This document shows positions 6,231-51,500 of a DNA stretch of 64,000 nucleotides, piece by piece. Numbering within the stretch: the stretch's first letter is position 1; each line of letters opens with the position of its first letter. Source of the stretch: an uncultured Pseudomonadota bacterium (GTDB taxonomy: Bacteria; Pseudomonadota; Alphaproteobacteria; RF32; CAG-239). The notes beneath the pieces are model-generated. The model was not told where the DNA came from, ran no database searches, and saw only the letters and a program-made list of their open reading frames with translations. The DNA lies in assembly GCA_902763155.1 (NCBI GenBank), contig CACWQS010000007.1, positions 3,184 through 67,183 on the forward strand, read 5' to 3'. Made by a program: the position numbers and the translations under genes.

Positions 6231-6476
6231 GCAAGGTGAAAAGACTTGCCCGAGGTGTGGAAACCTCTTTGAGAGCGTCAATGCAAGACGTTAAATTTTG
6301 CAGGCCCGATGGTTATCTTTATGTGATGATCGGTGGGCGGCAAAATAAGCCGTTTTACAAAGACATCATATAAATATTCTAGACAAATATATGGCTGTTT
6401 AGGCCAATATGTCGCACTATTCTCTCAAATAGTTTCCAACCGCCGGTCGCTTTTCATTAAGCGACTAGTTTTTTTT
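6231..6476 (+). ncRNA. c4/CI-like antisense RNA-attenuator leader A
   Basis: GAAAAGA-loop hairpin (6231-6249); b1 hairpin with TGGAAAC (6258-6264) and a1 TTTGAGAG (6268-6275), complementary to a' CTCTCAAA (6422-6429) and b' GTTTCCA (6432-6438); P1 GATCGGTGG/CCGCCGGTC; terminal hairpin plus T8. Confidence 0.75.
6445..6476 (+). terminator. Conditional intrinsic terminator (attenuator) at the end of leader A
   Basis: GGTCGC-TTTTCATTAA-GCGACT followed by AG and T8, immediately upstream of the RBS of the 6502 gene. Confidence 0.7.
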
Positions 6477-6501
6477 GTTTATGGCGAAAAGGAGAACGAC
6501 G

Positions 6502-8196
6502 ATGAGTAGAGAAGAAGATAGAGAAACTTTGGAAAAGTTTTTTAATTGTGTCAGAGAGCAGAATTATCAAGATATTGAAGAAGCATATAAAGCCGTATGC
6601 AAAATGCCGGAATGTTATAGTCCTGATGCTCAATATCACACCTATGGAAAAGCTTACTATATAGATGAAAGAATTTATCCAACCGAAAATAATGTAGATT
6701 TTCATCCGTATATTAAAGGTTATTATGATATGGCAGTTACAGAACAGATGAGTTGGGGAATAGAAGTTTCAAGAGACTTAAAAAGGATAAAAAAGTATAA
6801 TGATTCAGCCGAGTTTGATGGAACTCGTGAATTAGTATTCTTTTTGAATAATTATCGCTATCTTAAAGATACATTAGAAAAACAGGGAAAAGAAATTTTC
6901 AGACCGGATACTTTTGATAAATATCCGTTTTTGGAAGATTATGTTAAAGGAATTTTCCGAGATGATTATGATAGTGTTACGCAAGATGCTGCACAATGCA
7001 AAACAATACCAGAATTAGTTAAAAACAAAGATGCGGTAAATAATTATTGTAATAGAGGTATCTTTGTATATAACCCAACAGAATATTGGGATAATATAGA
7101 AAAAAGGTATGAAGAATGGGGAAAACAAAAATGGCGTGAAATATATACGGAGGCTGAAAATGAAACTTTCAAACAAGGAAATATAGCTACGCTTTCAGAC
7201 GAAGAAAAGAAATTTATATTAGAAAATACCGAAAACGCAGATAGAGCTATTGCAGTTGGCAAAACAGTGAGTAATGAAGTTCTGGATAATTGGGATAATC
7301 CGGTTTTAAAGGCAGAAATTCTTTTTGCAAGAGCGGAAAAACCGGAAAAACTTTCAGATGAAGATAAAGAATTTATATTAAAATGGAGTGAGTCAGATAA
7401 AACCCTTGAGGCTGTTGCTAAGGTGTATGATTTTAAAGCACAATCCGGTGAAAAACTAAAGGTATTACTTCGTTGTGTTGAGCATAAAGAAATTCGTAAA
7501 GATATTGCCAAAGAATATATAGACTCGTGCAAGGGGGATGTTGCTTACAGTTTTCCGATTTCTCGAGTTTTTACCAAAGAAGAATTTGAGCAAGCAGTTG
7601 AAGATTATAAAATCACGCAATATCGTCGTGAAAACGAGAAGTTGAGTGCTGAAAATACGCAATTAAAAGAAGAACATAAAAACGTAGAAAAAGCAAAAAC
7701 AGAACTTGCCGATGAGCAGACGAAATTTCAGCGTTATGTTAATGACAAAAGCGCAGAACTTAAAGCTAAAAGTGAGCAGCTTGGTTTTCAAAAAGATATT
7801 CCGGTTGTTTGTTTAGGCTCGCAAAAAGAGGTTGATTCTTTTGCTCCTGAGCGCAAAAAAGAACTTTTCGCCAAGATGAAAGAGGAAATGTTGAAAAACC
7901 CGAATTTAAGGGAAGGGCATTTGGTCGGAATGTGTAAAATTTATGTTTCCGAAACCAATACACCGGAACAGAAAGCCGAGTATTTTGAAGGTTTGCACGA
8001 AGTTCGTAAATCTGGAACAACTAATGCCGAAAAACGCGAAATGGCGCGCACTTTTGGCCGCGTTTTAGAGCGCAATCAGGAATTAGCCAAAGACGAAGCA
8101 CTAAAAGGTTTGGCTAAGATAGATTACAGCGCCGTTGGATATACACCAACAAAACGCGGCTTTAGTAAAAACAGTAAAAGTGATTTAGAAAAATAA
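6502..8196 (+). CDS. Hypothetical charged/coiled-coil protein, about 564 aa
   Basis: Long ORF; ATG 6502 follows an AAGGAG RBS (the track start 6475 lies inside the terminator); internal repeat; coiled coil near residues 370-430; basic C-terminal tail. Confidence 0.85.
   Translation: MSREEDRETLEKFFNCVREQNYQDIEEAYKAVCKMPECYSPDAQYHTYGKAYYIDERIYPTENNVDFHPYIKGYYDMAVTEQMSWGIEVSRDLKRIKKYNDSAEFDGTRELVFFLNNYRYLKDTLEKQGKEIFRPDTFDKYPFLEDYVKGIFRDDYDSVTQDAAQCKTIPELVKNKDAVNNYCNRGIFVYNPTEYWDNIEKRYEEWGKQKWREIYTEAENETFKQGNIATLSDEEKKFILENTENADRAIAVGKTVSNEVLDNWDNPVLKAEILFARAEKPEKLSDEDKEFILKWSESDKTLEAVAKVYDFKAQSGEKLKVLLRCVEHKEIRKDIAKEYIDSCKGDVAYSFPISRVFTKEEFEQAVEDYKITQYRRENEKLSAENTQLKEEHKNVEKAKTELADEQTKFQRYVNDKSAELKAKSEQLGFQKDIPVVCLGSQKEVDSFAPERKKELFAKMKEEMLKNPNLREGHLVGMCKIYVSETNTPEQKAEYFEGLHEVRKSGTTNAEKREMARTFGRVLERNQELAKDEALKGLAKIDYSAVGYTPTKRGFSKNSKSDLEK
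7192..7383 (+). repeat. Intragenic direct repeat (2 copies)
   Basis: ctttcagacgaagaaaagaaatttatatta (7192) vs ctttcagatgaagataaagaatttatatta (7351); LSDEEKKFIL / LSDEDKEFIL. Confidence 0.75.
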
Positions 8197-8212
8197 AAAC
8201 TTAAATTCCAGC

Positions 8213-8250
8213 AAAAGCGCATGGGTTGTATAATCGGTGCGTTTTTGTTT
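8213..8250 (+). terminator. Probable intrinsic terminator after the 6502 gene
   Basis: aaaagcgcatgggtt-gtat-aatcggtgcgtttttg imperfect hairpin with T-tract. Confidence 0.55.
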
Positions 8251-8339
8251 TATATGTTTTTTTATCGCGATACATCTCAAATTCTTAAAAACTTATAACT
8301 AATCATAAAATTTCTAAACGGGGATTTAGATAATGATAT

Positions 8340-8367
8340 TTGTCGCATAATGTATATTATGTATAGT
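8340..8367 (+). other. dif: dif site (XerC/XerD chromosome dimer resolution site)
   Basis: TTGTCGCATAA-TGTATA-TTATGTATAGT; 19 contiguous bases (CGCATAATGTATATTATGT) identical to E. coli dif; intergenic between convergent genes; KOPS polarity flips here. Confidence 0.92.
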
Positions 8368-8420
8368 TACATACATGTGAAAACTTAATTTAGTTCATTA
8401 TTGCTCAAAATATCATGCAG

Positions 8421-10007
8421 TTAAATCAGCGATGCGTTAATAAGTTGGCGCGTATATTGTTGCTGCGGATTTTCAAAAATTTGCTTTACATTACCAACTT
8501 CTACAACAACGCCGTTTTGCATAACTATAACTCTGTGAGAAATTGCTTTAACAGCGCTCATATCATGAGAAATAAAAATATATGATAACTCATATTTTTT
8601 TTGCAAACATTTTAGTAACTCAACAATTTGTGCTTGTACCGTTACATCTAAGGCTGACGTAGGTTCATCTAATAATACAATTTGTGGGCGCAAAATCAAA
8701 GCTCTGGCTAAAGCAATACGTTGACGTTGACCGCCGGAAAACTCATGCGGATACTTATTTAAAACCTCTGGTGATAATTCAACATCTTGTAAAATCTGCA
8801 AAATTTTCTGTTCTTTTTCTTCATTTGTCATATTTTTGTAATGCACATTTAAGCCTTCACCTATGATATCGCGCACATTCATGCGCGGATTAAGTGAATT
8901 GTAAGGATCTTGAAAAACAATTTGTATATCTTTATTAAATAGTTTATTTTCTTGAAATATATTATTGTTTTTAATGTATATTTTTCCTTTGTGTTTTATA
9001 AGATTAACTAAAGACATCGCTAGTGTGGTTTTACCGGAGCCGGACTCGCCTACTATACCTAAAGTTTCTGCTTTCCCCAGCTCTAAAGATATGTTATTTA
9101 CGGCCTTTAATTCTTTAATTACCCTACCCCAAAAATTCTTCTTTTGTGGAAATGTTACTTCAATATTTTCGGCTTTTAATATAATATCTTCGTGTTTTTT
9201 ATTATTTGTATTCAATAACAAAGAAGATGATATTAACTTTTTAGTATAATCATCTTGAGGGCGATTGAAAATCTCATCTGCCGAACCATATTCAACGATT
9301 TTTCCCTGATACATAACTGCTATATTATCAGCTATATGGCGAACCAAACGCAAATTATGGCTGATAAAAATGATGCTCATATTCAACTTTTGTTTCAACT
9401 CAAGTAGCAAATTGATAATTTGCTCTTGTATTGTTACATCTAAAGCAGTTGTCGGTTCATCGGCAATCAAGATGCTGGGGTTATTGGCAATTGCCATGGC
9501 AATCATCACTCTTTGCCGCTGACCGCCGGAAAGTTCAAACGGAAAAGCATTTATCTTTTGCTCCGGATTAGGAATTTTCACGGCTTCAAGCAATTCAATT
9601 GTTCTTTTTTTAACTTCTGCGGCTGACATTTTTTGATGTAATGTGATACTTTCGGCAATTTGTTTACCGATTTTATGCAATGGATTGAGCGATGACATCG
9701 GTTCTTGAAAAATAAAAGCAATTTTATTGCCGCGAATATGGCGGAAATTTTCGTTATCTAAACCTATAAGTTCTTGATTTTCAAATATAATTGAAGATTC
9801 TTTGCTATGAGATGCTTTAGGATATGGCAACAGTCCGAGTATGGATAATGCAGTAACCGATTTACCGGAACCGGATTCACCGACAATACCTAATATTTCA
9901 CCTTGACTTAAACATAAATTAGCATCGATAACGGCTTGAAAATGTGTATTATTTTCTCTCTCAAATTTAACTGATAAATGTTTTATTTCCAATAGATTAT
10001 TCATCAA
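8421..10007 (-). CDS. yejF: Peptide ABC transporter dual ATP-binding protein (YejF-like)
   Basis: Two ABC domains: GESGSGKS...LSGGQRQR...DEPTT and GESGSGKT...FSGGQRQR...DEPTS. Confidence 0.85.
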   Translation of the reverse strand: MMNNLLEIKHLSVKFERENNTHFQAVIDANLCLSQGEILGIVGESGSGKSVTALSILGLLPYPKASHSKESSIIFENQELIGLDNENFRHIRGNKIAFIFQEPMSSLNPLHKIGKQIAESITLHQKMSAAEVKKRTIELLEAVKIPNPEQKINAFPFELSGGQRQRVMIAMAIANNPSILIADEPTTALDVTIQEQIINLLLELKQKLNMSIIFISHNLRLVRHIADNIAVMYQGKIVEYGSADEIFNRPQDDYTKKLISSSLLLNTNNKKHEDIILKAENIEVTFPQKKNFWGRVIKELKAVNNISLELGKAETLGIVGESGSGKTTLAMSLVNLIKHKGKIYIKNNNIFQENKLFNKDIQIVFQDPYNSLNPRMNVRDIIGEGLNVHYKNMTNEEKEQKILQILQDVELSPEVLNKYPHEFSGGQRQRIALARALILRPQIVLLDEPTSALDVTVQAQIVELLKCLQKKYELSYIFISHDMSAVKAISHRVIVMQNGVVVEVGNVKQIFENPQQQYTRQLINASLI

Positions 10008-11017
10008 TTATTTTTCCTCGTATCAAGAGCATCACGGACCCCCTCGCCTATAAAAATCAGCATTGAAAGCAAACCGGAAAGGACAATAAAAATACTTATT
10101 CCAATCCATGGAGCTTGCAAATTATCTTTACCTTGCCGCACCAAATCTCCCAACGATGGATAATCTTCCGACAGTCCCAAACCTAAAAAATCCAGTGCAC
10201 TAAGAGAGGTTATAGCTTCTGCCATAATAAAGGGAATAAATGTAACCGAAGTAACCAAAGCATTCGGTAAAATATGCCGGAACATAATCCGTAAATTCCC
10301 TACTCCCATCACTTGTGCTGCTTTAACATATTCAAAATTACGCAATCGTAAAAATTCGGCTCTCACCATACCTGTTAGGCCGGTCCACGAAAATAACAAT
10401 AAAATTACCAGTAAACTCCAAAATGTCGGTAAAAATACACTGGCAATGATAATGAGAATAAACATTTGCGGCAGAGAATCCCATATTTCAATGACACGTT
10501 GTAATATTAAATCGGTTTTACCGCCAAAATATCCCTGCACTGCTCCGATGATAATACCTATAACCGAAGAAATTGCAGTTAGCAAAAAGGCAAATATTAC
10601 TGATAATCTGATACCATATAGTATGCGTGCCAAGATATCGCGTCCGGATTCATCCGTCCCGAGAATATGTTGTGAATCCGGAGCAGACGGAGTTGCTTGA
10701 GCCAGCTCATAATCTACCGTATTAAAAGAATACGGTATGAATGGCATTATCATCCACCCGTTTTGTTTTATATTTTGCTGAATTACAATATCTTTATAAT
10801 TAGCTTCAGTTGGAAAGTCTCCGCCGAATGATTCGTCACTATAACTTTGGAATATCGGAAAACAATAATTATTTTTATATTTTATTATCAATGGTTTATC
10901 GTTGGCAATTAATTCAGAAAATAATGAAAACACGAAGACTAAGGTAAAAATAACCAAAGCCCAGAAAGCACGCTTATTTTTTCTAAATTTTGCAATTTTT
11001 TCCCGATTGACAATCAT
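10004..11017 (-). CDS. yejE: Peptide ABC transporter permease (YejE-like)
   Basis: ELIANDKPL, LGTDESGRDILAR, EAA-loop VRAEFLRLRNFEYVKAA. Confidence 0.85.
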   Translation of the reverse strand: MIVNREKIAKFRKNKRAFWALVIFTLVFVFSLFSELIANDKPLIIKYKNNYCFPIFQSYSDESFGGDFPTEANYKDIVIQQNIKQNGWMIMPFIPYSFNTVDYELAQATPSAPDSQHILGTDESGRDILARILYGIRLSVIFAFLLTAISSVIGIIIGAVQGYFGGKTDLILQRVIEIWDSLPQMFILIIIASVFLPTFWSLLVILLLFSWTGLTGMVRAEFLRLRNFEYVKAAQVMGVGNLRIMFRHILPNALVTSVTFIPFIMAEAITSLSALDFLGLGLSEDYPSLGDLVRQGKDNLQAPWIGISIFIVLSGLLSMLIFIGEGVRDALDTRKNN

Positions 11018-11019
11018 TT

Positions 11020-13011
11020 TTATTCTACAATATTTCCCTGCAATTTTGCTTCATCATCAATAAAGTTTAGATCATCTATACCGAAATCTTCCTCAGAAAT
11101 TTCTTCATCTTCAAATTCTGTATTTTGTTTCTTAAAGATATCTGCCTCATCTTCCGGTAAAGAGGTATTGATTTTCAACCATTCTGCGTACCATTTGGTA
11201 AATTTTTCCGAATGATCAATATCAGCCCCACTACTGAGGTAATATAACTTTCTGCGTAATGCCTCATACAAACTGCCATGAATATCGAGTTTTTTGGGCT
11301 CACATTGTTCCTTAGGGTGGAATAAATATTGAGATAAAATATTGTTAGTCGGGCAAAATCCCATGTTTACTTCAGCTTTTTTCTGATGTTTATCATGTAT
11401 TGCCATACCTACCAGTCTGTTCGCCATGAAATTATCAATAAAATCTTGATATTTATAGTTTTGGAAGTTATTAACTCCGGAAGTTCCTTGTATAACCATT
11501 ACGGTATCGTCCCATAAATTTTTTTCTCTTAATTTATCAATAAACTCTTCTAATTTACCATATAAACAGCGAGTTTGTTGCAAATAGGCTGTTTGACGTT
11601 GCTCGGTATAATCTGTCTTTATCCAAGGCAGATTAGCCATATCCAACCATTCTTCTTGCGGTTTCAAACGGCAATACTCATCATATATATACATATTCGA
11701 CGGAATATCGGCAAAAACAAAATATGCCTGTCTTCCACTATCTTTTAGAATATCATCAAACAATATATCAAAAGTTTTGATAGAATTAACCACATACAAA
11801 TTATTATAATCTACGCCTACCATCGGCACTCTGTCGGCATCAATTACCGATGCTAATGTGTGGTAAATTGACGACATATTAGTCAATAGATGCATACTCG
11901 AAAGCCACTCTACCATCAAAATTTTGGTCTTTTCCCAAGTAGATAAAGACATTGAGTAAATGTTGGTTGGTTGATTAATCTTTTCAATACAACGTGTTAC
12001 ATTAATTTTATGATTAACATGACACATATCAAAATCACGTGATTTATAGGCTGAAATCTGAAATTTATTCTTTTTGAAAATATCATATAGTTGATTATCT
12101 TTCAAATAAATATATTCAGTGCGTAAATTACGAAAACGCCAATATTCCGACAAAATCCGCGTCTTTAATAAATGTTCACTGCTATGTTTATTCGACATTG
12201 GATTAAAACTGATAACCATATTGCTTAAGTATTCATGTTCCGGAGTGTATGCTTGAGGATAATTAGTAAACCCATTTTTCTGATAAAATCCTTGAATTAA
12301 GTGTTTAGTATACTGTGCATCGGAAAATTTTAAGCCATTTAAGTAAGAATATGATACCAGATTAGGAAACATAAAATATATAAATCGTTTATTACCATTT
12401 TGACGTATTGTTTGCGAATTATGCGATTCCACAAATTCGTGCGGCTCTGTATGACGCATATAAGTAACATAAACATCAGCAAATAAAATAATTGCAGCCA
12501 ATGTTAATAGCCCTTTAAATAATATTTTGTCTTGAGCAAAAATGGCAAACACAATCGCAGCTAAGACAATACCTACAACGATATAAGTCGAAACGTTGTA
12601 AGAACCAAGATTTATAGTTTGTTGCATCTGCGAAAATTGATTAAACATCGCATATACAAAACCAAATGTAATAAACGAAGCAAAGGCATATTTAGTTATG
12701 GAATGTTTGTTTAATAACCAAACAATTATCGAAACAACAGGCACTAAGCATAACAAGCTTAACAATACTTCCGGAATAGGTAAAACAGAATTATGAAAAA
12801 CCTCTACGTTACCGGAACCGGCAAATAAAATAAAATCCGTTGCCAGCAAACTTAGGCAAAAGATTATAATGAATATACTTTCAATTCCTCGATAATCCTT
12901 AAACTTTTTTTCCAGTTTTTGACCTTTCCGCGAAAAACGCCCGTCATAGTCGTGACTTAATGGTGATACGGCTCTCGAATTATCGGTTTTGTTCAAGTCA
13001 TCCAAAAACAT
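11020..13011 (-). CDS. Hypothetical membrane protein: about 5 TM segments plus a large periplasmic sulfatase/alkaline-phosphatase-like domain and acidic tail
   Basis: N-terminal hydrophobic segments; LEEFIDKLREKNLWDDTVMVIQGTSG resembles the sulfatase-fold C-terminal motif. Confidence 0.6.
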   Translation of the reverse strand: MFLDDLNKTDNSRAVSPLSHDYDGRFSRKGQKLEKKFKDYRGIESIFIIIFCLSLLATDFILFAGSGNVEVFHNSVLPIPEVLLSLLCLVPVVSIIVWLLNKHSITKYAFASFITFGFVYAMFNQFSQMQQTINLGSYNVSTYIVVGIVLAAIVFAIFAQDKILFKGLLTLAAIILFADVYVTYMRHTEPHEFVESHNSQTIRQNGNKRFIYFMFPNLVSYSYLNGLKFSDAQYTKHLIQGFYQKNGFTNYPQAYTPEHEYLSNMVISFNPMSNKHSSEHLLKTRILSEYWRFRNLRTEYIYLKDNQLYDIFKKNKFQISAYKSRDFDMCHVNHKINVTRCIEKINQPTNIYSMSLSTWEKTKILMVEWLSSMHLLTNMSSIYHTLASVIDADRVPMVGVDYNNLYVVNSIKTFDILFDDILKDSGRQAYFVFADIPSNMYIYDEYCRLKPQEEWLDMANLPWIKTDYTEQRQTAYLQQTRCLYGKLEEFIDKLREKNLWDDTVMVIQGTSGVNNFQNYKYQDFIDNFMANRLVGMAIHDKHQKKAEVNMGFCPTNNILSQYLFHPKEQCEPKKLDIHGSLYEALRRKLYYLSSGADIDHSEKFTKWYAEWLKINTSLPEDEADIFKKQNTEFEDEEISEEDFGIDDLNFIDDEAKLQGNIVE

Positions 13012-13012
13012 C

Positions 13013-14473: not shown

Positions 14474-14474
14474 T

Positions 14475-15935: not shown

Positions 15936-15941
15936 CTTGTC

Positions 15942-16229: not shown

Positions 16230-16246
16230 TTTATATCCTCTTTTTC

Positions 16247-17995: not shown

Positions 17996-18005
17996 TGCTT
18001 TTATA

Positions 18006-41075: not shown

Positions 41076-41128
41076 CTTGACAACTTCTATCGGTAAAAAT
41101 ATCCTTGCCTTAATAAAAGGAGTAAATA

Positions 41129-41704: not shown

Positions 41705-41709
41705 TTCGA

Positions 41710-42069: not shown

Positions 42070-42091
42070 AAAACCGATGTTGGTTACCTCC

Positions 42092-42688: not shown

Positions 42689-42704
42689 CTCTATCCCTTT
42701 CTTG

Positions 42705-43472: not shown

Positions 43473-43548
43473 CTTCATCTCTTTCAATTGCCCTATAATA
43501 TATAGCCAAATCTTTTATAAATCAATCGAAAAAATGCTTTTTTGCCAA

Positions 43549-43583
43549 CAAAAAAGCAGGGATTTTTACTTTCCCTGCCTTTT
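43549..43583 (-). terminator. Terminator after the 43602-44771 gene
   Basis: gcaggga/tccctgc stem flanked by A- and T-tracts. Confidence 0.65.
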
Positions 43584-43601
43584 GTGTTCCGATATTTTAC
43601 T

Positions 43602-44771: not shown

Positions 44772-44938
44772 AATTCTTGATTTTTAAATGTTATTAATAA
44801 TATAAATTTGTCTTTATGATACACGTTCTAAAAAATTTGTCAAGTTTTTTATTAAAAAAATATTCACTCTTGACAAAAATAAAAAATCTGTTACTATAAA
44901 ATCCAATAAAAAGATTATTAACATAAAAACTTACATAT

Positions 44939-45868
44939 ATGGAAAAAATTAACACTATGATGATTTGGCCGGTGCAAAAGCCCTGCCAGATTGCGTATCG
45001 TGACCCGTTAACGGGCGTGTTATGGCTTCGACCATACATAGATTTGCGCCTCAAGAGTAAAATCTGGGGTATATGTATTAACGGTGCTGTGTTTAAGTTG
45101 ACACACGAACCGGACGCTAAATGGGATACCGCTACAAATTATACCGACGAAAAAAGTAAAGCTAAAATGCCGCAAACGACGGATTTAGATGCTGTTTTTC
45201 CCTATGTTGCCGATTTTAATCGTGTGGTTGGCGAGCTGAACAAACATCGCATTTCTGCCGAATCATGGCGCCAAGGCTTTTACTGGAGTGGGGAAAATGA
45301 TGGCGACAATGCTGTAGTTATGGATATGGGAAGCGGTAAGGTTGAACTTCTGCCCAAACGGATTCCCAATGTCTATACCCGTCTGGTCAGTTATCGAATT
45401 ATCAATAAACCGATTAACACCGGTGCCACATTGGCTTATTGGCGTAACGGTCGCATTGAAGTTTCGCTTGATTTACATCTTGATTGCCTGCATCAGCTCT
45501 GGGGAATCCAAACTTGTAATAAGAACATCTTTTGTAAATTGACCGATGAGCCTCAGATGTATGATTGGAATGCCGGTATGCAACTTGCCAAAGAGCAAAG
45601 CACCGATACCGTTAAGCTAATATTACCCAGTGCCGAAAATATGCTTGAGGTTGAAAAATATTACCAGAGCAACAACGACACACTGGCGATTATTGCAGCT
45701 TATGGCATTAAGGTTGATTTGTTCGACAAACGCAAATGGGGGTATCTGACTTCTACCGAATACGGCGAAGGGCATTTTATAACCCACTACCACGAGATGA
45801 TAGCAAAAAACAAACCGTGTAAATGTCGTTTATTTGCTCAGCCACGCAAAAATCCGGTAGTGTTCTGA
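44939..45868 (+). CDS. Hypothetical protein with two tandem DUF1566/CLec-like domains
   Basis: Two homologous halves: AY...WGI...KLTxEP...W...P...YWS/YLTS...K...RL; promoter TTGACA at 44870. Confidence 0.7.
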   Translation: MEKINTMMIWPVQKPCQIAYRDPLTGVLWLRPYIDLRLKSKIWGICINGAVFKLTHEPDAKWDTATNYTDEKSKAKMPQTTDLDAVFPYVADFNRVVGELNKHRISAESWRQGFYWSGENDGDNAVVMDMGSGKVELLPKRIPNVYTRLVSYRIINKPINTGATLAYWRNGRIEVSLDLHLDCLHQLWGIQTCNKNIFCKLTDEPQMYDWNAGMQLAKEQSTDTVKLILPSAENMLEVEKYYQSNNDTLAIIAAYGIKVDLFDKRKWGYLTSTEYGEGHFITHYHEMIAKNKPCKCRLFAQPRKNPVVF

Positions 45869-45880
45869 TTTTTTATAAAG

Positions 45881-45918
45881 AGAGTCTCAAAAAACTTGTT
45901 GTTTTTGGGGCTCTTTTT
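45881..45918 (+). terminator. Terminator after the 44939 gene
   Basis: agagtctcaaaaaac-ttgtt-gtttttggggctct followed by T-tract. Confidence 0.7.
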
Positions 45919-45948
45919 GTTTATATTGCCTTTCATAAGGAGAAAAAG

Positions 45949-47166
45949 ATGCAATTAAGCGCCAAATATCAAGCCGTTTTGGAAATAATGCAAAAAGTGT
46001 GGCAAGACCAATATCCTGCCGACAATATAATCAAAGAGTATTTACGTGCGCGCAAATATATCGGTTCAAAAGACCGTAAGTTTATAGTTAATACCGTTTG
46101 GGATATTATCCGCCATCGCAGTCGGCTTGAATTTGACTGCGGTTGTTGCGAACCGCGAATGTTACTTTTGGCTTATCTGCAACAAAAAGGGGAAGATTTA
46201 GATATAGTTGCCGATGATTCTACTTACGGTCTGAAAAGCCTTGATAAGACCGAAAAACAAGCGTTACAACATCTGCGTGAAGATGTTTATCCGCCGGAGA
46301 TTGAACATGAATGTCCAAAATGGCTGTTTGAAAAAATCAATAATCCCATGTTGGTTGAAACTTTAAATACTACGGCACCGGCAGATATACGTGCCAATTT
46401 CATCAGCCGTGATGAGGCTAAAAATAAGCTGCAAAAAGAAGGCCTATTCTTTTCGCTTTCACCTTATTCACCATACGGATTACGCTCAGCAGAACGTATC
46501 AACTTACAAAACTGCATTGCTTACCAAAACGGTGAAATTGAAGTGCAAGACGAAGCATCGCAACTGGGGGCTATATTATGTGATGTGCGTGCCGAACACC
46601 GCATCATTGATTATTGTTGCGGAGGTGGCGGTAAAAGTCTGCTTTTGGGCGCTATTTTGAATAACAAAGGCACAATTTTGGCGCACGATAAAAATCTTAA
46701 GCGCATGGAAGGATTAGCCGAGCGCGCTAAGCGTTTAGGCATTAAAAACATAAAACAAATTGAAAAATTGCAACCAAACGACAAATTTGAGCGTTTTATC
46801 ATTGATGCACCATGCTCCGGCAGTGGTACATGGCGCCGTTCTCCAGATGCCAAATATCGCTTAACACCGAAGCAACTGAAAGCCATTGAGCAAGCGCAAG
46901 AAGAAATCTTAGATATTGCCGTTAAACATCTGGCACCAACAGGTCGTATTGTTTATATGACATGCTCGGTTTTGCCGGAAGAAAACGAACAACGTATAGA
47001 AGCATTTTTGCAAAAATATCCGCATTTTGAAACGGTTAACATGGAAAAATTGTGGGAACGTAAATTGGAACTTCCTTACCCGCTGACAGAAACCCGTTGG
47101 CTTAAATGTTCACCGCTTTCCACTAACACCGATGGCTTTTTTGTCTGCGTTTTACAACACCGTTAA
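45949..47166 (+). CDS. RsmB/NOP family m5C rRNA methyltransferase
   Basis: EVQDEASQL, DYCCGGGGKS, DAPCSGSGTWRR, VYMTCSVLPEEN; ATG 45949 follows AAGGAG. Confidence 0.92.
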   Translation: MQLSAKYQAVLEIMQKVWQDQYPADNIIKEYLRARKYIGSKDRKFIVNTVWDIIRHRSRLEFDCGCCEPRMLLLAYLQQKGEDLDIVADDSTYGLKSLDKTEKQALQHLREDVYPPEIEHECPKWLFEKINNPMLVETLNTTAPADIRANFISRDEAKNKLQKEGLFFSLSPYSPYGLRSAERINLQNCIAYQNGEIEVQDEASQLGAILCDVRAEHRIIDYCCGGGGKSLLLGAILNNKGTILAHDKNLKRMEGLAERAKRLGIKNIKQIEKLQPNDKFERFIIDAPCSGSGTWRRSPDAKYRLTPKQLKAIEQAQEEILDIAVKHLAPTGRIVYMTCSVLPEENEQRIEAFLQKYPHFETVNMEKLWERKLELPYPLTETRWLKCSPLSTNTDGFFVCVLQHR

Positions 47167-47873
47167 TTTTTTTGCAGTAAATCTCTGATTACTTCTCCGG
47201 CGATTAATAACCCCATTACTGACGGAACGAAAGATATACTCCCCGGAGTTTGTCTTTTTCCGTTATTCGCTTCACACATTTGCGGCTTTAGTGCCGGTTC
47301 GGTTGAATAAGCCACCTTTACATGACTAATTCCGCGTTGCCGCAATTCTTTACGCATTACCTTGGCCAACGGACAAGTATGGGTTTTACTAATATCGGTA
47401 ATTTCGAGTTTGCTTGCATCCAGTTTATTACCGGCTCCCATGGCACTGATAATCGAAACTCCGGCCTCGACGGCCTGCTCTATAAGTGAAATTTTACCGG
47501 CAACTGTATCAATGGCATCTATCACATAATCGTATTCTTTAAAATTAAATTGTTCTTTATTTTCATGAAGATAAAATATTTTGTTAATTTTTAACTTTAT
47601 ATTAGGATTAATGTCTTTGATCCGCTTTGCCGCTATCTCAACCTTGGGTTGACCGATAGTGGAATGCAAAGCAATAATCTGCCGATTGATATTGCTTATA
47701 TCAACCATATCATCATCAACTAAATCCAATGCTCCGATCCCTGCCCGCGCCAACGCTTCAACCGCATATCCGCCGACTCCGCCGATACCGAAAACCGCCA
47801 CACGGGCTTTTTGCAATTTTTCCAATCCTTCTGAGCCAATCAGCATCTCAGTGCGTGAAAATTGCTTATTCAT
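47163..47873 (-). CDS. tcdA: tRNA threonylcarbamoyladenosine dehydratase (ThiF family)
   Basis: GIGGVGGYAVEALARAGIG, SNINRQ, DAIDTV, SAMGAGNKLD, CPLAKVMRKEL. Confidence 0.9.
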   Translation of the reverse strand: MNKQFSRTEMLIGSEGLEKLQKARVAVFGIGGVGGYAVEALARAGIGALDLVDDDMVDISNINRQIIALHSTIGQPKVEIAAKRIKDINPNIKLKINKIFYLHENKEQFNFKEYDYVIDAIDTVAGKISLIEQAVEAGVSIISAMGAGNKLDASKLEITDISKTHTCPLAKVMRKELRQRGISHVKVAYSTEPALKPQMCEANNGKRQTPGSISFVPSVMGLLIAGEVIRDLLQKN

Positions 47874-47889
47874 ACTATCTTACTCCTTT

Positions 47890-48774
47890 CTAACGTTCCA
47901 ATAGAACCAAAGCAACAGCGCAAATAAGCAATAATATTGCTTTTTTGCGCTCTATTATCCGAAATTTTGTGCCTTTGCCGTATTTTTCCAATATTTTTCC
48001 AATAAGCATAATCCAAATTATGTATAAATACAAGGTTGCGGTTACAAATGCCGGATTACTGACTTGAAACATGGCAAAATTTTTGCTGGCCATTGAACCG
48101 ACAAGTAAGGCAATAAGAGGCATATATTTAAGATTTTTTATAACACATAAATCCTTTATTTTATTATTATTTTTCATATAGATAAGCAAATTTATCACCG
48201 CTACCACCACTCCGGTGATTAGAATATAATAATAACTGGCATACGGCACAAGTTCGGCTGAAACATAGCTCATACATTGTTTGTTGATAATATCACATAA
48301 TGCCGCTACAAAAAAATATGGTAACAGATACTGAATCAGCTTTTTACTGCGATGTGAAGATTTAATTGAGGCTGTAGCATAAATAATCCCGCAAAATGCG
48401 ACAATTATCGCAAAAAATCGCCATAATTCATCAACATAGAGCATTATATTATAGGGCTTTAAAATAAGCCACATCACAAAAACAACACCAATCCCCAACG
48501 GATACAATGAAGAAACAGCCTCTGCTCCCCATACGTGCATAGCTCTGAAATTGCGATAATCAATATAAGCAATCACCAATCCTTGTAGCACACAGAAAGC
48601 ATAAAACTGCCACGATGGAATCATGGTTATAAAAGGCAAAAACGGTAATAGAAGCAAAACCGGAGCAAATCCCCTGTAAAACATAAAAACATTCGGGGTT
48701 AATTTTGCTATTTGATTACCGAAATAATAAGCGCAAACGAAAAAGCTGGAAATTATAACATAGATAAACCACAT
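47890..48774 (-). CDS. DMT/EamA-like 10-TM membrane protein
   Basis: About 10 hydrophobic segments arranged as two 5-TM halves. Confidence 0.6.
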   Translation of the reverse strand: MWFIYVIISSFFVCAYYFGNQIAKLTPNVFMFYRGFAPVLLLLPFLPFITMIPSWQFYAFCVLQGLVIAYIDYRNFRAMHVWGAEAVSSLYPLGIGVVFVMWLILKPYNIMLYVDELWRFFAIIVAFCGIIYATASIKSSHRSKKLIQYLLPYFFVAALCDIINKQCMSYVSAELVPYASYYYILITGVVVAVINLLIYMKNNNKIKDLCVIKNLKYMPLIALLVGSMASKNFAMFQVSNPAFVTATLYLYIIWIMLIGKILEKYGKGTKFRIIERKKAILLLICAVALVLLER

Positions 48775-48777
48775 ATT

Positions 48778-49623
48778 CTAACCCTCATACCACCCTTTTC
48801 CCTCACATTGCGGCTTAACAATTCCGTTAGCATTTCCTTGCAATTTTTCAATACGATAAGCGCGTACACACTCCCATTTCGTAATCGGATATTTTTTATT
48901 CCACGCGTTCAAAACACCACGCATCGGCTCGCCGATACGATAACGCGGATAAGTGCTTTGCATATATAAATAAGTTCGAGCAATCAACCCCTTCATATTG
49001 TCAGGCGGTTCAACCTTATTGCGCGAGATTTTCATTTGGCAAGTACCGAAAGTTACCGGTATGCCCGTATCAAACTGTGTCATATTGAAATGAGCGCGCA
49101 AAAAATTCACCGCCCCAATGCTCGGATAAAGGTTATACATATCGGTGTACATATAGCGAAATTCTTCGCTTTGCTGCTCGGCACATTTACGCCCTTTATA
49201 CCTTTTTCCCCCATCGAAAGTACAGTTCTTATGCCCGTTTGACCATTCGGTGAACGTTTTACCGAAGTTTTGTGCCGGCACGATGTGTTCCCACTCCATA
49301 CGCTCGGCTTTACGTTGTAACTCCTCTGCCGAAACATTGTCATAGAGCGTAAAATCAACCTTGCGCAGATTGGGAAGTTTAAACCCTTTCGGTAATTTAA
49401 TCTTTTTGCGAGAGTTCCAAGTAACACCACAATACAAAGTTTGTTTATGGTCAAAATATATATTATCCAGCATTTCTTTTTTGACGGCATAAAAAGACTG
49501 ACTATGGCGATTTCCCTGTACTGTTGTTTTCGGTGCGACATTATCGTCAAACGGTCGCCAACCGAATGCTGCAATTATTACTGTTATTAAGCAAATTACC
49601 GAAATAAAAAATAACTTTTTCAT
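48778..49623 (-). CDS. endA: Secreted endonuclease I (EndA/Vvn/Dns family)
   Basis: Signal peptide, TLYCG, MEWEHIVPA, DMYNLYPSIGAVN, GLIARTYLYM. Confidence 0.9.
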   Translation of the reverse strand: MKKLFFISVICLITVIIAAFGWRPFDDNVAPKTTVQGNRHSQSFYAVKKEMLDNIYFDHKQTLYCGVTWNSRKKIKLPKGFKLPNLRKVDFTLYDNVSAEELQRKAERMEWEHIVPAQNFGKTFTEWSNGHKNCTFDGGKRYKGRKCAEQQSEEFRYMYTDMYNLYPSIGAVNFLRAHFNMTQFDTGIPVTFGTCQMKISRNKVEPPDNMKGLIARTYLYMQSTYPRYRIGEPMRGVLNAWNKKYPITKWECVRAYRIEKLQGNANGIVKPQCEGKGWYEG

Positions 49624-49689
49624 CTGTTTTATATCCTGTTTTTTTATAAATTTATCGTAAAACAAAAAAGAGAATTGTCAATAAAATAT

Positions 49690-49720
49690 AAAAAAAATAA
49701 CCGCTCGTCTTGTGAGCGGT
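49690..49720 (-). terminator. Terminator of the OMP-lipoprotein operon
   Basis: Minus strand accgctc-acaagac-gagcggt followed by tattttttt. Confidence 0.75.
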
Positions 49721-49750
49721 ATTAAATGATTAAATTATTTACTAACTAAA

Positions 49751-50176
49751 TTATTTTTGATTATCAATTGGTGTCATATTCATTAGAGCATCGTCTTGTT
49801 CTAAATAATACATATCACCGCTTATCGGGTCAATAATCAGCAAACCGATAAGACCGCCAAAAATAATATTTGCCCAATACCAACCGCTTATATGATAATC
49901 AATACGTGTTTGATAATCTTCATAGCCGTCCTTATGCGCATAAACTGTATAGTATTGAGGGTTAAAGTAACCATCATCAGAAGTTTTTAGGTTAATGGTT
50001 GTCGGAGTCTGTCCTTCAAAAACAGTAAGACCGTTTCTATCTATAATTTTAATATCTACATTAGCAGGACTTGCATTTAGTGTTATCGGCTCCATATTAT
50101 CACGCATAATGGTTGCGCAACCGAAAATCATTGGTAAAATGCCTATAACAGCACATAACATAAATATCTTTTTCAT
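49751..50176 (-). CDS. Lipoprotein with PEGA-like domain and C-terminal hydrophobic hairpin
   Basis: Lipobox IFGC-ATI, GQTPTTINL, KDGYE, WANIIFGGLIGLLIIDPISGDMY. Confidence 0.8.
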   Translation of the reverse strand: MKKIFMLCAVIGILPMIFGCATIMRDNMEPITLNASPANVDIKIIDRNGLTVFEGQTPTTINLKTSDDGYFNPQYYTVYAHKDGYEDYQTRIDYHISGWYWANIIFGGLIGLLIIDPISGDMYYLEQDDALMNMTPIDNQK

Positions 50177-50180
50177 CTTA

Positions 50181-50597
50181 CTAGTCCTTTTGAATAAGTT
50201 TACATTCTTTGATTTCTGATAAAGCGCGACTTTGGTCAGAAACCAACTTAATATTATAACGTCCAGAAATAGCCCCCCAATTTACACCGGAAGAAACATA
50301 ATATTCTTTTCCTGCTTGTGCATCTACAGTAATAGATTCTGTATTTTCTATACTTTCAACAGTGTAAGTATGTTTTCCGGCAGATGTGTGGTGCGGATAA
50401 TAGCCGCCATTATACATTGTAATGATTGTGTTACCATTTTCTTGCACGTCTGGAGACATTCCGCCACCAACATATTTCCACGGGCGGTAAAAATACACGA
50501 TTGCTTCCTCTGAATTTGGTTGTTGCGGAGAGAATTGTTCCCCTAAACTGGCACACGAACAAAGTGCAAATACACATAAAATCAGATATTTTTTCAT
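50181..50597 (-). CDS. DUF2846-like lipoprotein
   Basis: MKKYLILCVFALCSC-AS lipobox; AIVYFYRP, NGGYY...GKHT, AGKEYYV. Confidence 0.8.
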   Translation of the reverse strand: MKKYLILCVFALCSCASLGEQFSPQQPNSEEAIVYFYRPWKYVGGGMSPDVQENGNTIITMYNGGYYPHHTSAGKHTYTVESIENTESITVDAQAGKEYYVSSGVNWGAISGRYNIKLVSDQSRALSEIKECKLIQKD

Positions 50598-50685
50598 CTC
50601 ACTAATCCTTTTTTTTCTTTTCCTTTTTAAAAGGCTCAATAACTTGGTATTGAGCCCCAAGTCAAAAGGAATATCGTTATAAAAA

Positions 50686-51258
50686 TTAGAAATTATAGCG
50701 AACGCCAACTGTTGCTTCGCCAATGTAATCAATATAGTCATTATCTATATGATGATAACGGAACATTCCGCGAATTGACCACTTGTCATTGATGTTATAT
50801 TGTGTGCCTAAACCAGCACGAAAAGCAGTTTTATTAAGAATTTCATGTACTTCCCATTTATCATATTTTCCAGCTTTTATATCAAAGCTATAATGACCTA
50901 CACCGGCAATAGCAAATAAATCGAGTTTTGTATTGAGGGGAATATAACCAACAGCATCAAGACCAACGGAACTATATGACAAATCGCCTATTTTATAACC
51001 ATGTGCTTTTAAATCTACTTCCGAAGATCCTTGTGAAGAAACTTCTAAACCAAAATATTGATTAAATTTTACGCCTAAATTTAAATTGGCAATAAGAAAC
51101 GCTTCTGAATGGCTCTCTCCCAGTAATTTATTTACCTTATTATTATATTCAATTCGTGATGCACCTAAATCCATTCCAATATAAGGTTTAATTCCCTCTG
51201 CATTTGCTTGAGCTGTAAATAAGCAGGCTACACCTGTAAGTAATAGATATTTTTTCAT
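50686..51258 (-). CDS. Outer membrane beta-barrel protein (OmpA-TM/Ail-Lom-like, 8-stranded)
   Basis: Signal peptide ANA-E, PYIGMDLG, GVKFNQYFGLE, GLGTQYNINDKWSIR, C-terminal VGVRYNF. Confidence 0.88.
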   Translation of the reverse strand: MKKYLLLTGVACLFTAQANAEGIKPYIGMDLGASRIEYNNKVNKLLGESHSEAFLIANLNLGVKFNQYFGLEVSSQGSSEVDLKAHGYKIGDLSYSSVGLDAVGYIPLNTKLDLFAIAGVGHYSFDIKAGKYDKWEVHEILNKTAFRAGLGTQYNINDKWSIRGMFRYHHIDNDYIDYIGEATVGVRYNF

Positions 51259-51283
51259 TTGTTTTCCATCCTTTTAAAAGTTC

Positions 51284-51311
51284 AAAAAAATACCCGCTTT
51301 TCTTTAGCGGG
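51284..51311 (-). terminator. Conditional intrinsic terminator (attenuator) at the end of leader B
   Basis: CCCGCT-AAAGAAA-AGCGGG-TATTTTTTT, ending 25 nt upstream of the OMP start codon. Confidence 0.7.
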
Positions 51312-51500
51312 CGGATGTTCGAAAACCGTCAATGATCAAGTAAAAACCGGCTCGGCTTATTTGGCCGGATAGCCTTATTCAGCCGACATCCGTCCAAAAA
51401 GAACAGAAGTCGGCATATATATTTAAGTCGCATATGCACACACGACTACTTGATTATTAGTAGGGTTTTCGACGCCCTAAGTATGTCTTTTCCATACCTA
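51284..51500 (-). ncRNA. c4/CI-like antisense RNA-attenuator leader B
   Basis: Minus strand: GTATG-GAAAAGA-CATAC hairpin; b1 TCGAAAACC (51464-51472) and a1 AATAATCAAGTA (51447-51458), complementary to b' GGTTTTCGA (51319-51327) and a' TACTTGATCATT (51331-51342); P1 GGACGGATGT/ACATCCGCCC; terminator CCCGCT/AGCGGG plus TATTTTTTT. Confidence 0.78.

Follow-up and report, generated by a model that had tools for sequence, protein, structure and literature searches.

A Large, Apparently Undescribed Family of c4-Like RNA Leaders with Private Pairing Codes in Small-Genome Gut Alphaproteobacteria

Two RNA leaders, here called A and B, lie in the 64,000-nucleotide stretch of DNA that we analyzed (the window) and are members of a large family of c4-like RNA switches that apparently has not been described so far. 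The hosts of this family are small-genome gut Alphaproteobacteria, in which the copies precede surface genes and other variable genes. It is fairly likely, in our judgment, that the leaders are multicopy, c4-type, self-addressed transcription attenuators.

Results

Leaders A and B Belong to a Large Family

A first-pass annotation of the window had proposed two homologous leaders with a shared module order, and all eight modules are present where it had placed them (Table 1). Family scans with a covariance model of the c4-like core (model R1 for the genome of origin) show the family to be larger than that pair: the 1.47-Mb genome of origin holds 15 copies, leaders A and B being two of these. 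The family occurs in all 24 genomes examined from the same genus (1-62 copies apiece, median 7.5) and, across the order, in 114 of 121 genomes and 19 of 19 genera. Beyond the order, 11 of 149 other families of the class were positive, as was, weakly, 1 of 150 other genomes from the rest of the phylum.

Table 1. Features of leaders A and B in window coordinates.
Feature	Coordinates	Strand	Description and basis
Leader A, whole	6230-6476	+	Eight modules present
A, promoter	6194-6222	+	TTGACA, 17-nt spacer, TGcTAATTT (extended -10); by reading the sequence; kept in four A-type copies
A, hairpin H1 (module 1)	6231-6249	+	GCAAG/CTTGC, GAAAAGA-type loop; from the fold; present in own copies
A, hairpin H2	6252-6267	+	GAGG/CCTC; loop with target 1, TGGAAAC (6258-6264)
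A, target 2	6268-6275	+	Single-stranded, hypervariable, TTTGAGAG
A, anti-P1/P2 strand and loop	6296-6327	+	UUUUGCAGGCCCGAU...; partner 6328-6345
A, c4-like core	6328-6448	+	Model R1, 102.6 bits; P1 and P2 covary
A, P1	6328-6336 with 6440-6448	+	
A, P2	6337-6341 with 6411-6415	+	Near-invariant AAAAUAAG and AAUAU loop strands; ~55-nt insert
A, P3	6416-6420 with 6429-6433	+	Loop is seeker 2, CTCTCAAA (6422-6429)
A, seeker 1	6432-6438	+	Single-stranded GTTTCCA
A, intrinsic terminator	6445-6476	+	8-bp stem and T-run; terminator scan (called 6445-6466)
A, downstream gene	6502-8196	+	564 aa, no family assigned; RBS and ATG 27 nt past model end
Leader B, whole	51284-51501	-	H1, H2, targets, H3, anti-P1/P2 hairpin, core, terminator
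B, H1 (module 1)	about 51499-51480	-	
B, target 1	51472-51464	-	In H2 loop, TCGAAAACC
B, target 2	51458-51447	-	Single-stranded, AATAATCAAGTA
B, H3	51446-51427	-	
B, anti-P1/P2 hairpin (module 5)	51414-51382	-	14 bp, one mismatch
B, c4-like core	51309-51395	-	Model R1, 86.4 bits
B, P1	51395-51387 with 51317-51309	-	One A.C mismatch
B, P2	51386-51382 with 51356-51352	-	
B, P3-loop seeker	51342-51331	-	TACTTGATCATT
B, second seeker	51327-51319	-	GGTTTTCGA
B, intrinsic terminator	51284-51312	-	7-bp stem and T-run; terminator scan (called 51312-51292)
B, downstream gene	50686-51258	-	190-aa outer-membrane beta-barrel protein (Pfam OMP_b-brl, 3.5e-17); start codon 25 nt past model end

The promoter of leader A escaped a consensus scan because its -10 hexamer agrees at only three of six positions. 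Both leaders contain a GTC..GAC hairpin followed by TTAAAT (module 4) and the motif CGGC(A/C)AAATAAGCCG (module 6). The latter, annotated as a near-identical module, does recur in both leaders but is not positionally homologous, as it comprises the P2 5' strand and the first AAUAAG in leader A, and the second AAUAAG and the P2 3' strand in leader B. The 14-bp hairpin annotated as module 5 likewise exists, yet it does not stand as a module of its own: the 5' strand of P1 and P2 serves as its 3' arm, making the hairpin an alternative to the c4-like fold.

Conserved Helices and Private Codes

Both leaders fold better than shuffled sequences (z = -4.6 for A and -6.1 for B; 0 of 200 shuffles as good). 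In an alignment fitted to the model, P1, P2, and the terminator are paired in 99.3% of cells, with 16 of 17 pairs changed on both sides, versus 31-60% of cells paired in slid controls. P1 and the terminator share bases: the first four bases of the leader A terminator, GGTC, also end the P1 3' strand, and the overlap in leader B is 4 nt. Three columns common to the two helices covary with both partners (column 142: AU 23, GC 16, and GU 3 with column 2; UA 21, CG 17, and UG 5 with column 170). The internal-loop strands of P2 are near-invariant, with entropies of 0.10 bits for AAAAUAAG and 0.00 bits for AAUAU.

The remaining helices were evaluated in a plain MAFFT alignment. The anti-P1/P2 hairpin, which folds with an energy of -24.4 kcal/mol in leader A, has 20 pairs, which are 93.8% paired and of which 4 changed on both sides; its cognate duplexes average -13.6 kcal/mol, compared with -8.0±3.0 kcal/mol for non-cognate combinations of elements that differ at three or more positions of the P1 5' strand. 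H2 is paired in 100% of cells, while H1 is paired in just 66.7%, in a region that aligns badly in this alignment (A6).

Two further helices join the 5' module to the core and constitute the private code of each copy. The helix between target 1 and seeker 1 is paired in 100% of cells, with 2 pairs changed on both sides. Target 2 is hypervariable (entropy 1.27 bits versus a mean of 0.65), and all seven counted pairs of its helix (8 of 8 including the pair common with P3) changed on both sides among 15 elements, with ∼94% of cells paired. Over 57 elements, the cognate code duplex averages -19.9 kcal/mol versus -11.7±3.5 kcal/mol for non-cognate duplexes; cognate pairing ranks first in 39 of these and within the top three in 51, as well as first in 13 of the 15 own copies and in 19 of 20 copies in genome G012. 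An element from a second family of the order (L052) lacks loop-code complementarity and ranks 54th of 57. These rankings, together with the double-sided changes, bear out the first-pass proposal that the codes differ from copy to copy, are each self-complementary, and covary. Its a and b labels, by contrast, are swapped relative to usage in phage P1, where the target in the hairpin loop is a1; target 1 of leader A is its b1 (a1 of phage P1) and target 2 its a1 (b1 of phage P1). The hypervariable helix has a single partner, whereas the other helices have two each, so its fast change need not reflect selection for new specificities.

A Candidate Attenuation Mechanism

In the mechanism we favor, each copy would have its own promoter and yield a structured RNA of 190-250 nt. 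Transcription would usually stop at the intrinsic terminator, ∼10-30 nt short of the ribosome-binding site that serves the following gene, leaving that gene to be expressed only through read-through. The outcome would be decided by three mutually exclusive helices, namely the anti-P1/P2 hairpin, the P1/P2 core, and the terminator. The upstream strand of the hairpin would sequester the 5' strands of P1 and P2, which could otherwise close a c4-like three-way core. Because the P1 3' strand ends in 3-4 bases that also form the bottom of the terminator stem, P1 would act as an antiterminator once fully formed. The two code pairings, one between the H2-loop target and the unpaired stretch that separates P3 from P1, the other between the single-stranded target after H2 and the P3 loop, would jointly tether the 5' module to the core. 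Pairing in cis may lock the terminating fold, and occupation of either side of the code, including by RNA of the same copy in trans, may shift nascent transcripts to read-through. With private codes, the many copies of a cell would remain independent of one another.

A nested energy model of 56 elements, which leaves out pseudoknots, agrees with this direction of switching. When the upstream targets are free, the terminating fold has an advantage of 8.3 kcal/mol, and 3 of 56 elements prefer the c4 fold. Blocking the targets nearly removes the difference (+1.0±4.2 kcal/mol), and 22 of 56 then prefer the c4 fold. The model suggests that occupied upstream targets would favor read-through, rather than the shut-off envisaged in the first-pass annotation. 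Two considerations qualify the scheme. P1 and the terminator overlap by just 3-4 of 7-8 stem pairs, so a shortened P1 and the terminator might coexist. The c4 RNA of phage P1 stays folded when it binds its targets; hence, code pairing may suit both folds and decide nothing.

The same elements could instead act as sensors in cis alone, as a riboswitch or as a leader that binds a protein, a reading that we regard as unlikely. The P1-P2-P3 junction with its AAAAUAAG/AAUAU loop would be the aptamer or protein site, binding would stabilize P1 and give read-through, and the codes would be drifting long-range helices with no RNA acting in trans. The near-invariance of the unpaired internal-loop strands fits a binding site, and riboswitch expression platforms are usually built with a P1 3' strand that the terminator shares. 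The long-range helix also belongs to the minimum-energy fold of both A and B, and a crude, seeded genome search returned no target beyond each copy's own upstream site. Second-messenger riboswitches are known to control pilin and surface genes in other bacteria. Against such a sensor, the layout mirrors, part for part, a device for RNA-RNA recognition (c4 and its a1/b1 module), and the range of downstream genes is too wide for a metabolite ligand. Moreover, all 20 sampled copies of one genome differ in their loop code in leaders that are otherwise alike, whereas known aptamer pseudoknots are conserved, not hypervariable.

Genes behind the Copies and RNA Evidence

The elements had been described as stand-alone switches, a view that their position contradicts. 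A start codon follows 11-28 nt past the model end in 12 of the 15 own copies, and 12-35 nt past it in 33 of 42 elements of other genomes, indicating that they are leaders. The genes behind them encode outer-membrane proteins, lipoproteins, pilin-like proteins, glycosyltransferases, restriction-modification systems, and HTH proteins, the last being small genes behind 3 of the 15 own copies. Two of the 15 have no gene behind them and resemble plain sRNA genes.

Assembled contigs from rumen metatranscriptomes, at least one of which derives from a paralogue and whose RNA libraries may carry DNA, span 6240-6474 in two of four runs. The contigs on leader A start at 6240 and 6244, with none found upstream, and in one run (X18) the per-contig depth is 6-16 on the leader versus 2.7-2.8 on the coding region.

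This deeper coverage of the leader in one run would also suit trans-acting sRNA genes of the c4/sRNA-Xcc1 kind, whose terminated or processed RNA acts elsewhere while the adjoining gene is incidental or weakly coupled. Consistent with such genes, the two gene-less own copies score best with the sRNA-Xcc1 model (37.9 and 35.5 bits), and sRNA-Xcc1 is described as an 88-nt sRNA confirmed by Northern blot (PMC2996969). We nonetheless consider this improbable as an account of the family. In 12 of the 15 own copies the gap from terminator to RBS is too short to hold a promoter, cognate downstream regions do not outperform non-cognate ones as targets (-12.2 versus -11.7 kcal/mol), the seeded genome search found no site clearly fitting both codes beyond the copy's own upstream module, and a copy's own targets would occupy its seekers in cis.

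The setting is not that of a phage, as the first-pass annotation had recognized: leader A follows mutS-mazG-priA and leader B follows gyrA, opp is also among the flanking housekeeping genes, the family pattern has 0 matches in viral contigs, and blastn against 50,697 phage records gave no match. That the copies are relics of prophage immunity or parts of mobile cassettes, with no present regulatory role, is therefore hardly credible and already largely refuted: the characterized relatives, as far as their reports describe them, all reside on a phage, prophage, or integron cassette (P1; Gifsy-1 IsrK, PMC4825925; sRNA-Xcc1, bioRxiv 10.1101/2025.06.18.660453), and leaders 84-90% identical preceding unrelated proteins suggest a portable module, but the neighbors are housekeeping genes, the family extends through nearly the whole order, and five helices, paired in 93-100% of cells, have changed in a compensatory manner, which shows that selection is still acting. 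Self-addressed attenuation remains our preferred reading.

Comparison with Known Systems

The c4-like layout proposed at first pass agrees with the annotated phage P1 record and the Rfam alignments: the topology of the leaders is the same as that of c4 with its a1/b1 module. In the P1 record, the loop of the second a1b1 hairpin holds a1, with b1 just 3' of it; the last c4 hairpin presents b' in its loop, and a' occupies the unpaired stretch leading up to the P1 3' strand. Like the leaders, c4 of phages P1 and P7 (RF01695, RF03163) begins with a promoter and a two-hairpin 5' module, with one target in the loop of the second hairpin and the other just 3' of it, followed by a spacer of ∼50-70 nt and a P1-closed core with two inner hairpins. 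The single-stranded target is complementary to the loop of the last hairpin, and the loop target to the unpaired stretch that leads into the P1 3' strand; the RNA and the gene it precedes share a promoter. By eye, a phage P1 hairpin (ACGCCC...GGGCGT) also takes in part of the 5' strand of the closing stem.

The leaders differ from c4 in having an intrinsic terminator that shares bases with P1, a covarying hairpin that sequesters the 5' strands of P1 and P2, a P2 with a conserved AAUAAG/AAUAU internal loop, and chromosomal locations before host genes at 15-62 copies per genome. c4 itself represses translation and relies on Rho-dependent polarity. Its repression sites over the RBS, a2 and b2, are absent downstream in the leaders, so the c4 mechanism is not simply transferable. 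Membership in an existing Rfam family was not borne out, as none reaches its threshold: the C4 model gives 14.7 bits on the core of leader B (cut-off 45) and nothing on leader A or in a whole-genome scan, and the c4-a1b1 model matches no leader. Conversely, our own model has no match in the phage P1 record.

The best-scoring Rfam family is sRNA-Xcc1 (RF02221), at 24.4-37.9 bits (24.4 for the core of leader B) and below its cut-off of 53; the top six matches of a whole-genome search are six of the 15 copies, in the same register from P1 to P1. Its consensus has AAUA-rich strands in the first inner hairpin, and we know of no 5' target module in it. Unlike the leaders, sRNA-Xcc1 is an integron-cassette sRNA of Xanthomonas, found on mobile cassettes of Gammaproteobacteria, and its reported product is the 88-nt sRNA (PMC2996969). 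Like them, it is described as preceding a gene that has the same orientation, in this case symE (bioRxiv 10.1101/2025.06.18.660453).

The Rfam family of IsrK (RF01394), from the Salmonella Gifsy-1 prophage, matches the a1/b1 region of phage P1, and IsrK is, to our knowledge, the sole characterized precedent for an RNA acting on its own mRNA. As in the leaders, a terminated short RNA and a read-through mRNA are reported to share a 5' module that pairs downstream in the same transcript, and the short form is described as competing in trans with its cis copy, switching the long form on (PMC4825925). In that account, however, the output is not termination but the translation of orf45-anrP; the terminator separates the target module from the remaining transcript, whereas that of the leaders follows the core; and a single prophage locus is involved.

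The Brt RNAs of Bartonella, compared by description only, also belong to an alphaproteobacterial host and precede HTH genes. In front of trp (XRE HTH) genes, nine copies are reported to yield an abundant RNA of 194-203 nt; a structure resembling a terminator ends it immediately ahead of the gene, which is poorly transcribed, and in the authors' reading this sRNA doubles as a riboswitch-like attenuator (PMC5387305). The same account mentions no similar sequence beyond Bartonella and places all copies before one gene family (PMC5387305), unlike the varied genes behind the leaders described here.

A family of leader RNAs with a single order of parts

The window sequence bears out leaders A and B as the first-pass annotation had described them, and the pairing codes listed for each are present, forming in each leader one long-range two-block duplex. 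Relative to shuffled sequences, the two leader folds gave z-scores of -4.6 and -6.1, and none of 200 shuffles equaled either leader. BLAST searches of A and B against their own genome (1.47 Mb in 21 contigs, 98% complete) showed that the two leaders are not a pair but members of a larger family. R1, a covariance model of the leader core that was built from eight copies, begins at the P1 5' strand, and ends with the terminator, found 15 copies in this genome at 40–105 bits (the "own copies"); a sixteenth match, at 20 bits, was a plain terminator. All 15 own copies share a single order of parts, in which target 1 pairs with seeker 1 and target 2 pairs with seeker 2 (the "loop code"). The observation made on two leaders is confirmed and generalized to a wider family.

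Parts of the leader RNAs, in 5' to 3' order, followed by variant forms and associated elements (window positions unless an L-number names another sequence region)
Feature	Position	Description
Leader A	6230-6476 (+)	Before the gene for a 564-aa protein
Leader B	51501-51284 (-)	Before an outer-membrane beta-barrel gene
Promoter		First part of leader; in A-type copies TTGACA, 17 nt, then TGcTAATTT
H1, then H2		5' module; H2 carries target 1 as its loop
Target 2, then H3		Target 2 single-stranded, 3' of H2
Anti-P1/P2 strand		After H3; complementary to 5' strands of P1 and P2
Core		P1 closes P2 and P3; P2 with AAAAUAAG and AAUAU loop strands and optional insert; P3 loop is seeker 2
P2 internal-loop strands	6342-6349 and 6406-6410 (A); 51381-51374 and 51362-51356 (B)	Unpaired; AAAAUAAG and AAUAU/AAUAAG
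P2 insert	6350-6405	Long A-type leaders; ~55 nt with own AU-rich hairpin
Seeker 1, then P1 3' strand		3' end of core; seeker 1 single-stranded
Intrinsic terminator		First 3–4 bases are the last bases of P1; called by scan in A and B
RBS and start codon		After terminator in most copies
Short-form leader (example)	L006:1477-1577	Without the ~55-nt P2 insert
Minimal forms	L030:1501-1592; L031:1501-1593	P2 a plain hairpin without inner hairpin
Relatives of leader A	L002:1503-1748; L003:1501-1740	Leaders 84–90% identical
Geneless copies	L027:285-387 (+); L028:1501-1602 (-)	No same-strand start within 1.4 kb (ORF rule)
~60-nt repeat	L004 about 1730; L003 about 1851; L010 about 1866; four other places	..TGCAAAT.CAC..GAGATCCCCTCA..TCGAGGATGACA; 7 occurrences in own genome
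Phage P1 hairpin	L074:228-262	ACGCCC..GGGCGU; takes in part of the c4 closing-stem 5' strand (by eye)

Among 57 elements pooled from many genomes, a direct stem search detected the P3 stem in 49, with 12 stem types, and a crude automatic test placed the codes in hairpin loops of the minimum-energy folds in 33 and 18 elements. The presence of the insert in long A-type leaders and its absence from short forms indicate that P2 tolerates large insertions. Three of the seven copies of the ~60-nt repeat sit 100–150 nt upstream of leaders.

Mutually exclusive helices share bases with the terminator

In an alignment of 43 matches from other genomes, 99.3% of cells in P1, P2, and the terminator were paired and 16 of 17 pairs had changed on both sides, compared with 31–60% of cells paired in slid controls; the alignment was fitted to R1, so these pair counts are flattered. 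Three columns common to P1 and the terminator covary with both of their partners. Column 142, for example, combines with column 2 as AU (23), GC (16), and GU (3), and with column 170 as UA (21), CG (17), and UG (5), which argues that both of the exclusive helices are under selection.

The hairpin formed by the anti-P1/P2 strand comprises 20 pairs, and when 15 long-form elements were aligned with plain MAFFT, 93.8% of its cells were paired and four pairs had changed on both sides. Cognate duplexes of this strand average -13.6 kcal/mol, versus -8.0±3.0 kcal/mol for duplexes with elements differing at three or more positions of the P1 5' strand. H2 was paired in 100% of cells of the MAFFT alignment, and H1 and H3 in just 66.7% and 70% (alignment A6), because this region is misaligned among divergent members. 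By segment entropy the P2 loop strands are nearly invariant; no other part of the RNA is as well conserved as these unpaired strands, which might bind a protein or a ligand or make a tertiary contact. Similar AAUA-rich strands are seen in the consensus of sRNA-Xcc1.

As in attenuators and riboswitch expression platforms, exclusive helices thus share a strand with a terminator that lies directly before the gene, and the minimum-energy folds of A and B contain the anti-P1/P2 hairpin, the long-range code duplex, and the terminator. Given the bases common to P1 and the terminator, full P1 probably acts as an antiterminator and the anti-P1/P2 hairpin as an anti-antiterminator. We compared the terminating fold with the c4 fold in 56 elements, using an energy model of nested structures for transcripts ending at the P1 3' strand, which ignores pseudoknots and kinetics. 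With the targets free, the terminating fold was favored by 8.3 kcal/mol and the c4 fold won in 3 of 56 elements; with the upstream targets masked, the two folds were about equal and the c4 fold won in 22 of 56. On the strength of this modeled difference, we read code pairing as a putative copy-specific lock that keeps the leader OFF. The lock would open when another partner competes for the codes, possibly RNA of the same copy, as in IsrK, an RNA of the Gifsy-1 prophage.

Each copy carries a private pairing code

The seeker region of each copy was tested for pairing against the upstream 130 nt of all copies. In 13 of the 15 own copies the cognate partner ranked first, with a mean of -19.9 kcal/mol versus -12.6 kcal/mol for non-cognate partners. 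For the 57 pooled elements it ranked first in 39 and among the top three in 51, and several of the near-ties are orthologues with an identical code. In the high-copy genome G012, the cognate partner came first for 19 of 20 sampled copies; these carry 20 different loop codes, and a few variants account for their other code.

The codes also bear the marks of compensated change. In MAFFT alignments, all seven counted pairs of the loop-code helix had changed on both sides (8/8 including a pair in common with P3), with 93–94% of cells paired, and the other code helix was 100% paired with two compensated positions. Variability peaks in the loop code and its target, with entropies of approximately 1.1–1.3 bits compared with a mean of 0.65; the segments were delimited with an offset of one base, and while these values are approximate, their order stands. 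Cognate ranking and two-sided changes together substantiate the earlier claim that the codes of each leader are self-complementary and differ between copies.

A two-seed search of the own genome for a second target returned as many matches as expected by chance, none of which clearly rivals the cognate site. A k-mer coverage search for extra targets was noisy, with the cognate sites themselves not ranked at the top.

The leaders precede diverse genes in small genomes of gut bacteria

R1 found the family in all 24 genomes of the same genus (1–62 copies each, median 7.5) and, across the order, in 114 of 121 genomes and 19 of 19 genera, all with genomes of 1.3–1.9 Mb. Beyond the order, matches occurred in 11 of 149 genomes from other families of the class, nearly all small (0.9–2.5 Mb), and in one of 150 other genomes of the phylum, as a weak match at 32 bits. 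Across this order of small-genome gut bacteria, no other leader is as common as the c4-type architecture, whose copies number up to 62 in a 1.5-Mb genome. When 185,579 species genomes were scanned for an exact pattern, at least 118 stretches matched; among the 80 matches listed, almost all are from uncultured gut alphaproteobacterial MAGs (rabbit, deer, sheep, yak, buffalo, and human), and a few carry the bin titles Bacteroidaceae, Eubacteriales, Bacilli, or Gastranaerophilales, perhaps through mis-binned contigs or by chance. The window's DNA itself was found in ruminant gut metagenomes.

The absence of a phage setting, noted in the first-pass annotation, holds: mutS, mazG, and priA lie before A, with an opp transporter beyond, and gyrA lies before B; the RNA pattern had no match in viral contigs, and a short-form leader used as blastn query likewise matched none of 50,697 phage records.

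A start codon follows the model end by 11–28 nt in 12 of the 15 own copies; in another the distance is 175 nt, and the remaining two are followed by no gene. Across other genomes, a start lies within 12–35 nt in 33 of 42 elements. The products include the outer-membrane beta-barrel behind B, a GT2 glycosyltransferase, an HTH_3 regulator (the copy in L006), two small HTH-like proteins, lipoprotein-like proteins, an acyltransferase-3, an EcoRI-type methyltransferase, an HSDR_N nuclease-like protein, and many proteins without a family, among them the 564-aa protein behind A; Pfam and NCBIfam gave no named family for most. In G012 (1.5 Mb), at least 17 of the 20 sampled leaders (L193–L212) precede paralogous genes starting MYKNFE.GRSMIE. 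This start, which we take to resemble a prepilin leader motif, scores 14.4 bits against TIGR02532, below the cut-off of 16.3, and on these two grounds the G012 products appear pilin-like. The small HTH-like proteins behind the minimal forms are 75–76 aa long and 36% identical.

Leader A and its 84–90% identical relatives precede unrelated proteins, with no similarity among those proteins by blastp at E up to 1e-3. Either the leaders act as portable modules, or gene conversion keeps them uniform.

On their 3' side, the two geneless copies are flanked by a shared, conserved stretch that includes a second terminator-like hairpin. No other matches to sRNA-Xcc1 in the genome score as high as these two (35.5 and 37.9 bits). 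Pairing would also be possible between their single-strand seeker, UUUUCGAG, and the loop targets of several gene-linked copies, B among them, a complementarity that hints at a hierarchy among copies.

The RNA evidence for the leader is weak. Metatranscriptome contigs cover window positions 6240-6474 in two runs, as assembled contigs in which RNA ends are not visible, with no contig upstream of where leader A is predicted to start. In one run the leader had a higher per-contig depth than the coding region. Two contigs cross the terminator into genes of paralogues. Runs X17 and X20 gave no informative cover of the leader, and stretches lacking cover were left out of the evidence.

The gene classes behind the leaders are those varied elsewhere by DNA inversion or slipped-strand mispairing. 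It is conceivable, though we think it rather unlikely, that the family forms an RNA-only addressable switchboard, with dozens of orthogonal c4-type toggles per 1.5-Mb genome, each an independent and self-reinforcing ON/OFF control of one surface or contingency gene whose private code limits trans action to nascent transcripts of the same copy. The genes so controlled would be pilin-like paralogues, porins, lipoproteins, glycan-modifying enzymes, or restriction-modification genes, and for uncultured gut Alphaproteobacteria such a switchboard would do with RNA what invertible promoters do for surface variation. Were the private codes to act in trans, the family would amount to dozens of RNA regulators that are naturally orthogonal to one another, bearing on surface variation in these bacteria and offering a parts list for synthetic biology.

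Comparison with c4, sRNA-Xcc1, and Brt RNAs

At gathering thresholds, no Rfam family matched in the window. The C4 model (RF01695, cut-off 45 bits) gave 14.7 bits for B (E = 5.8), no match for A at E up to 10, and none in the whole own genome at E up to 10; phage P1, the positive control, scores 68.8 bits. The c4-a1b1 model (RF03163, cut-off 46.7 bits), which scores 51 bits on phage P1, had no match on A or B at E up to 10, and its four matches in the own genome reached at most 14.1 bits, all away from the leaders. Conversely, R1 had no match on the phage P1 record at E up to 10. By score, sRNA-Xcc1 (RF02221) comes nearest among Rfam families: 6 of the 15 copies match at 24.4–37.9 bits, below the cut-off of 53, with per-genome E-values of 2.6e-5 to 0.04, and these six are the best six in the genome. 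Other sub-threshold Rfam matches (miRNA, snoRNA, and similar) were taken as chance. We found no description of the family in Rfam 15 or in the literature searched.

In architecture, the likeness to c4 is close. Like c4, the leaders have a closing stem around two hairpins, with seekers in the last hairpin loop and before the P1 3' strand; like c4-a1b1, A, B, and other own copies have two hairpins, with target 1 in the second loop and target 2 just 3' of it. The phage P1 record is annotated in the order promoter, a1, b1, c4, a2, b2, icd, and in the Rfam alignments two of the pairing segments fall in hairpin loops, a1 in the second hairpin of a1b1 and b' in the last one of c4, and a' is single-stranded, ahead of the closing-stem 3' strand of c4. 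The layout match drawn in the first-pass annotation thus stands in its topology, with its a and b labels exchanged. Of the likeness it proposed, the architecture survives, whereas membership of the c4 family does not, the scores being below cut-off, nor does the c4 mechanism, as a2/b2 are absent.

This last is the decisive functional difference: c4 acts on a2/b2 over the RBS of the next gene, and the leaders are without them. For downstream targets of the a2/b2 type in the own copies, cognate pairing gave -12.2 versus -11.7 kcal/mol for non-cognate, with the cognate ranking 2 to 15 of 15. Mature c4 is an RNA of ~77 nt released by RNase P, and the known c4-type RNAs occur singly, as controls of immunity or of toxins carried by phages, prophages, and integron cassettes.

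The isrK model, run on phage P1, matches a terminator-like hairpin between b1 and c4. Together with the hairpin that takes in part of the c4 closing stem, this suggests that the anti-P1 element may be ancestral to RNAs of the c4 kind. The HTH-like genes behind the minimal forms and the HTH_3 gene behind the L006 copy recall Brt/Trp of Bartonella, and the family may also explain the Brt RNAs there. The c4 architecture is here probably rebuilt as a terminator-based switch, and the family offers a testable idea for the role of the poorly understood a1/b1 module of phage P1.
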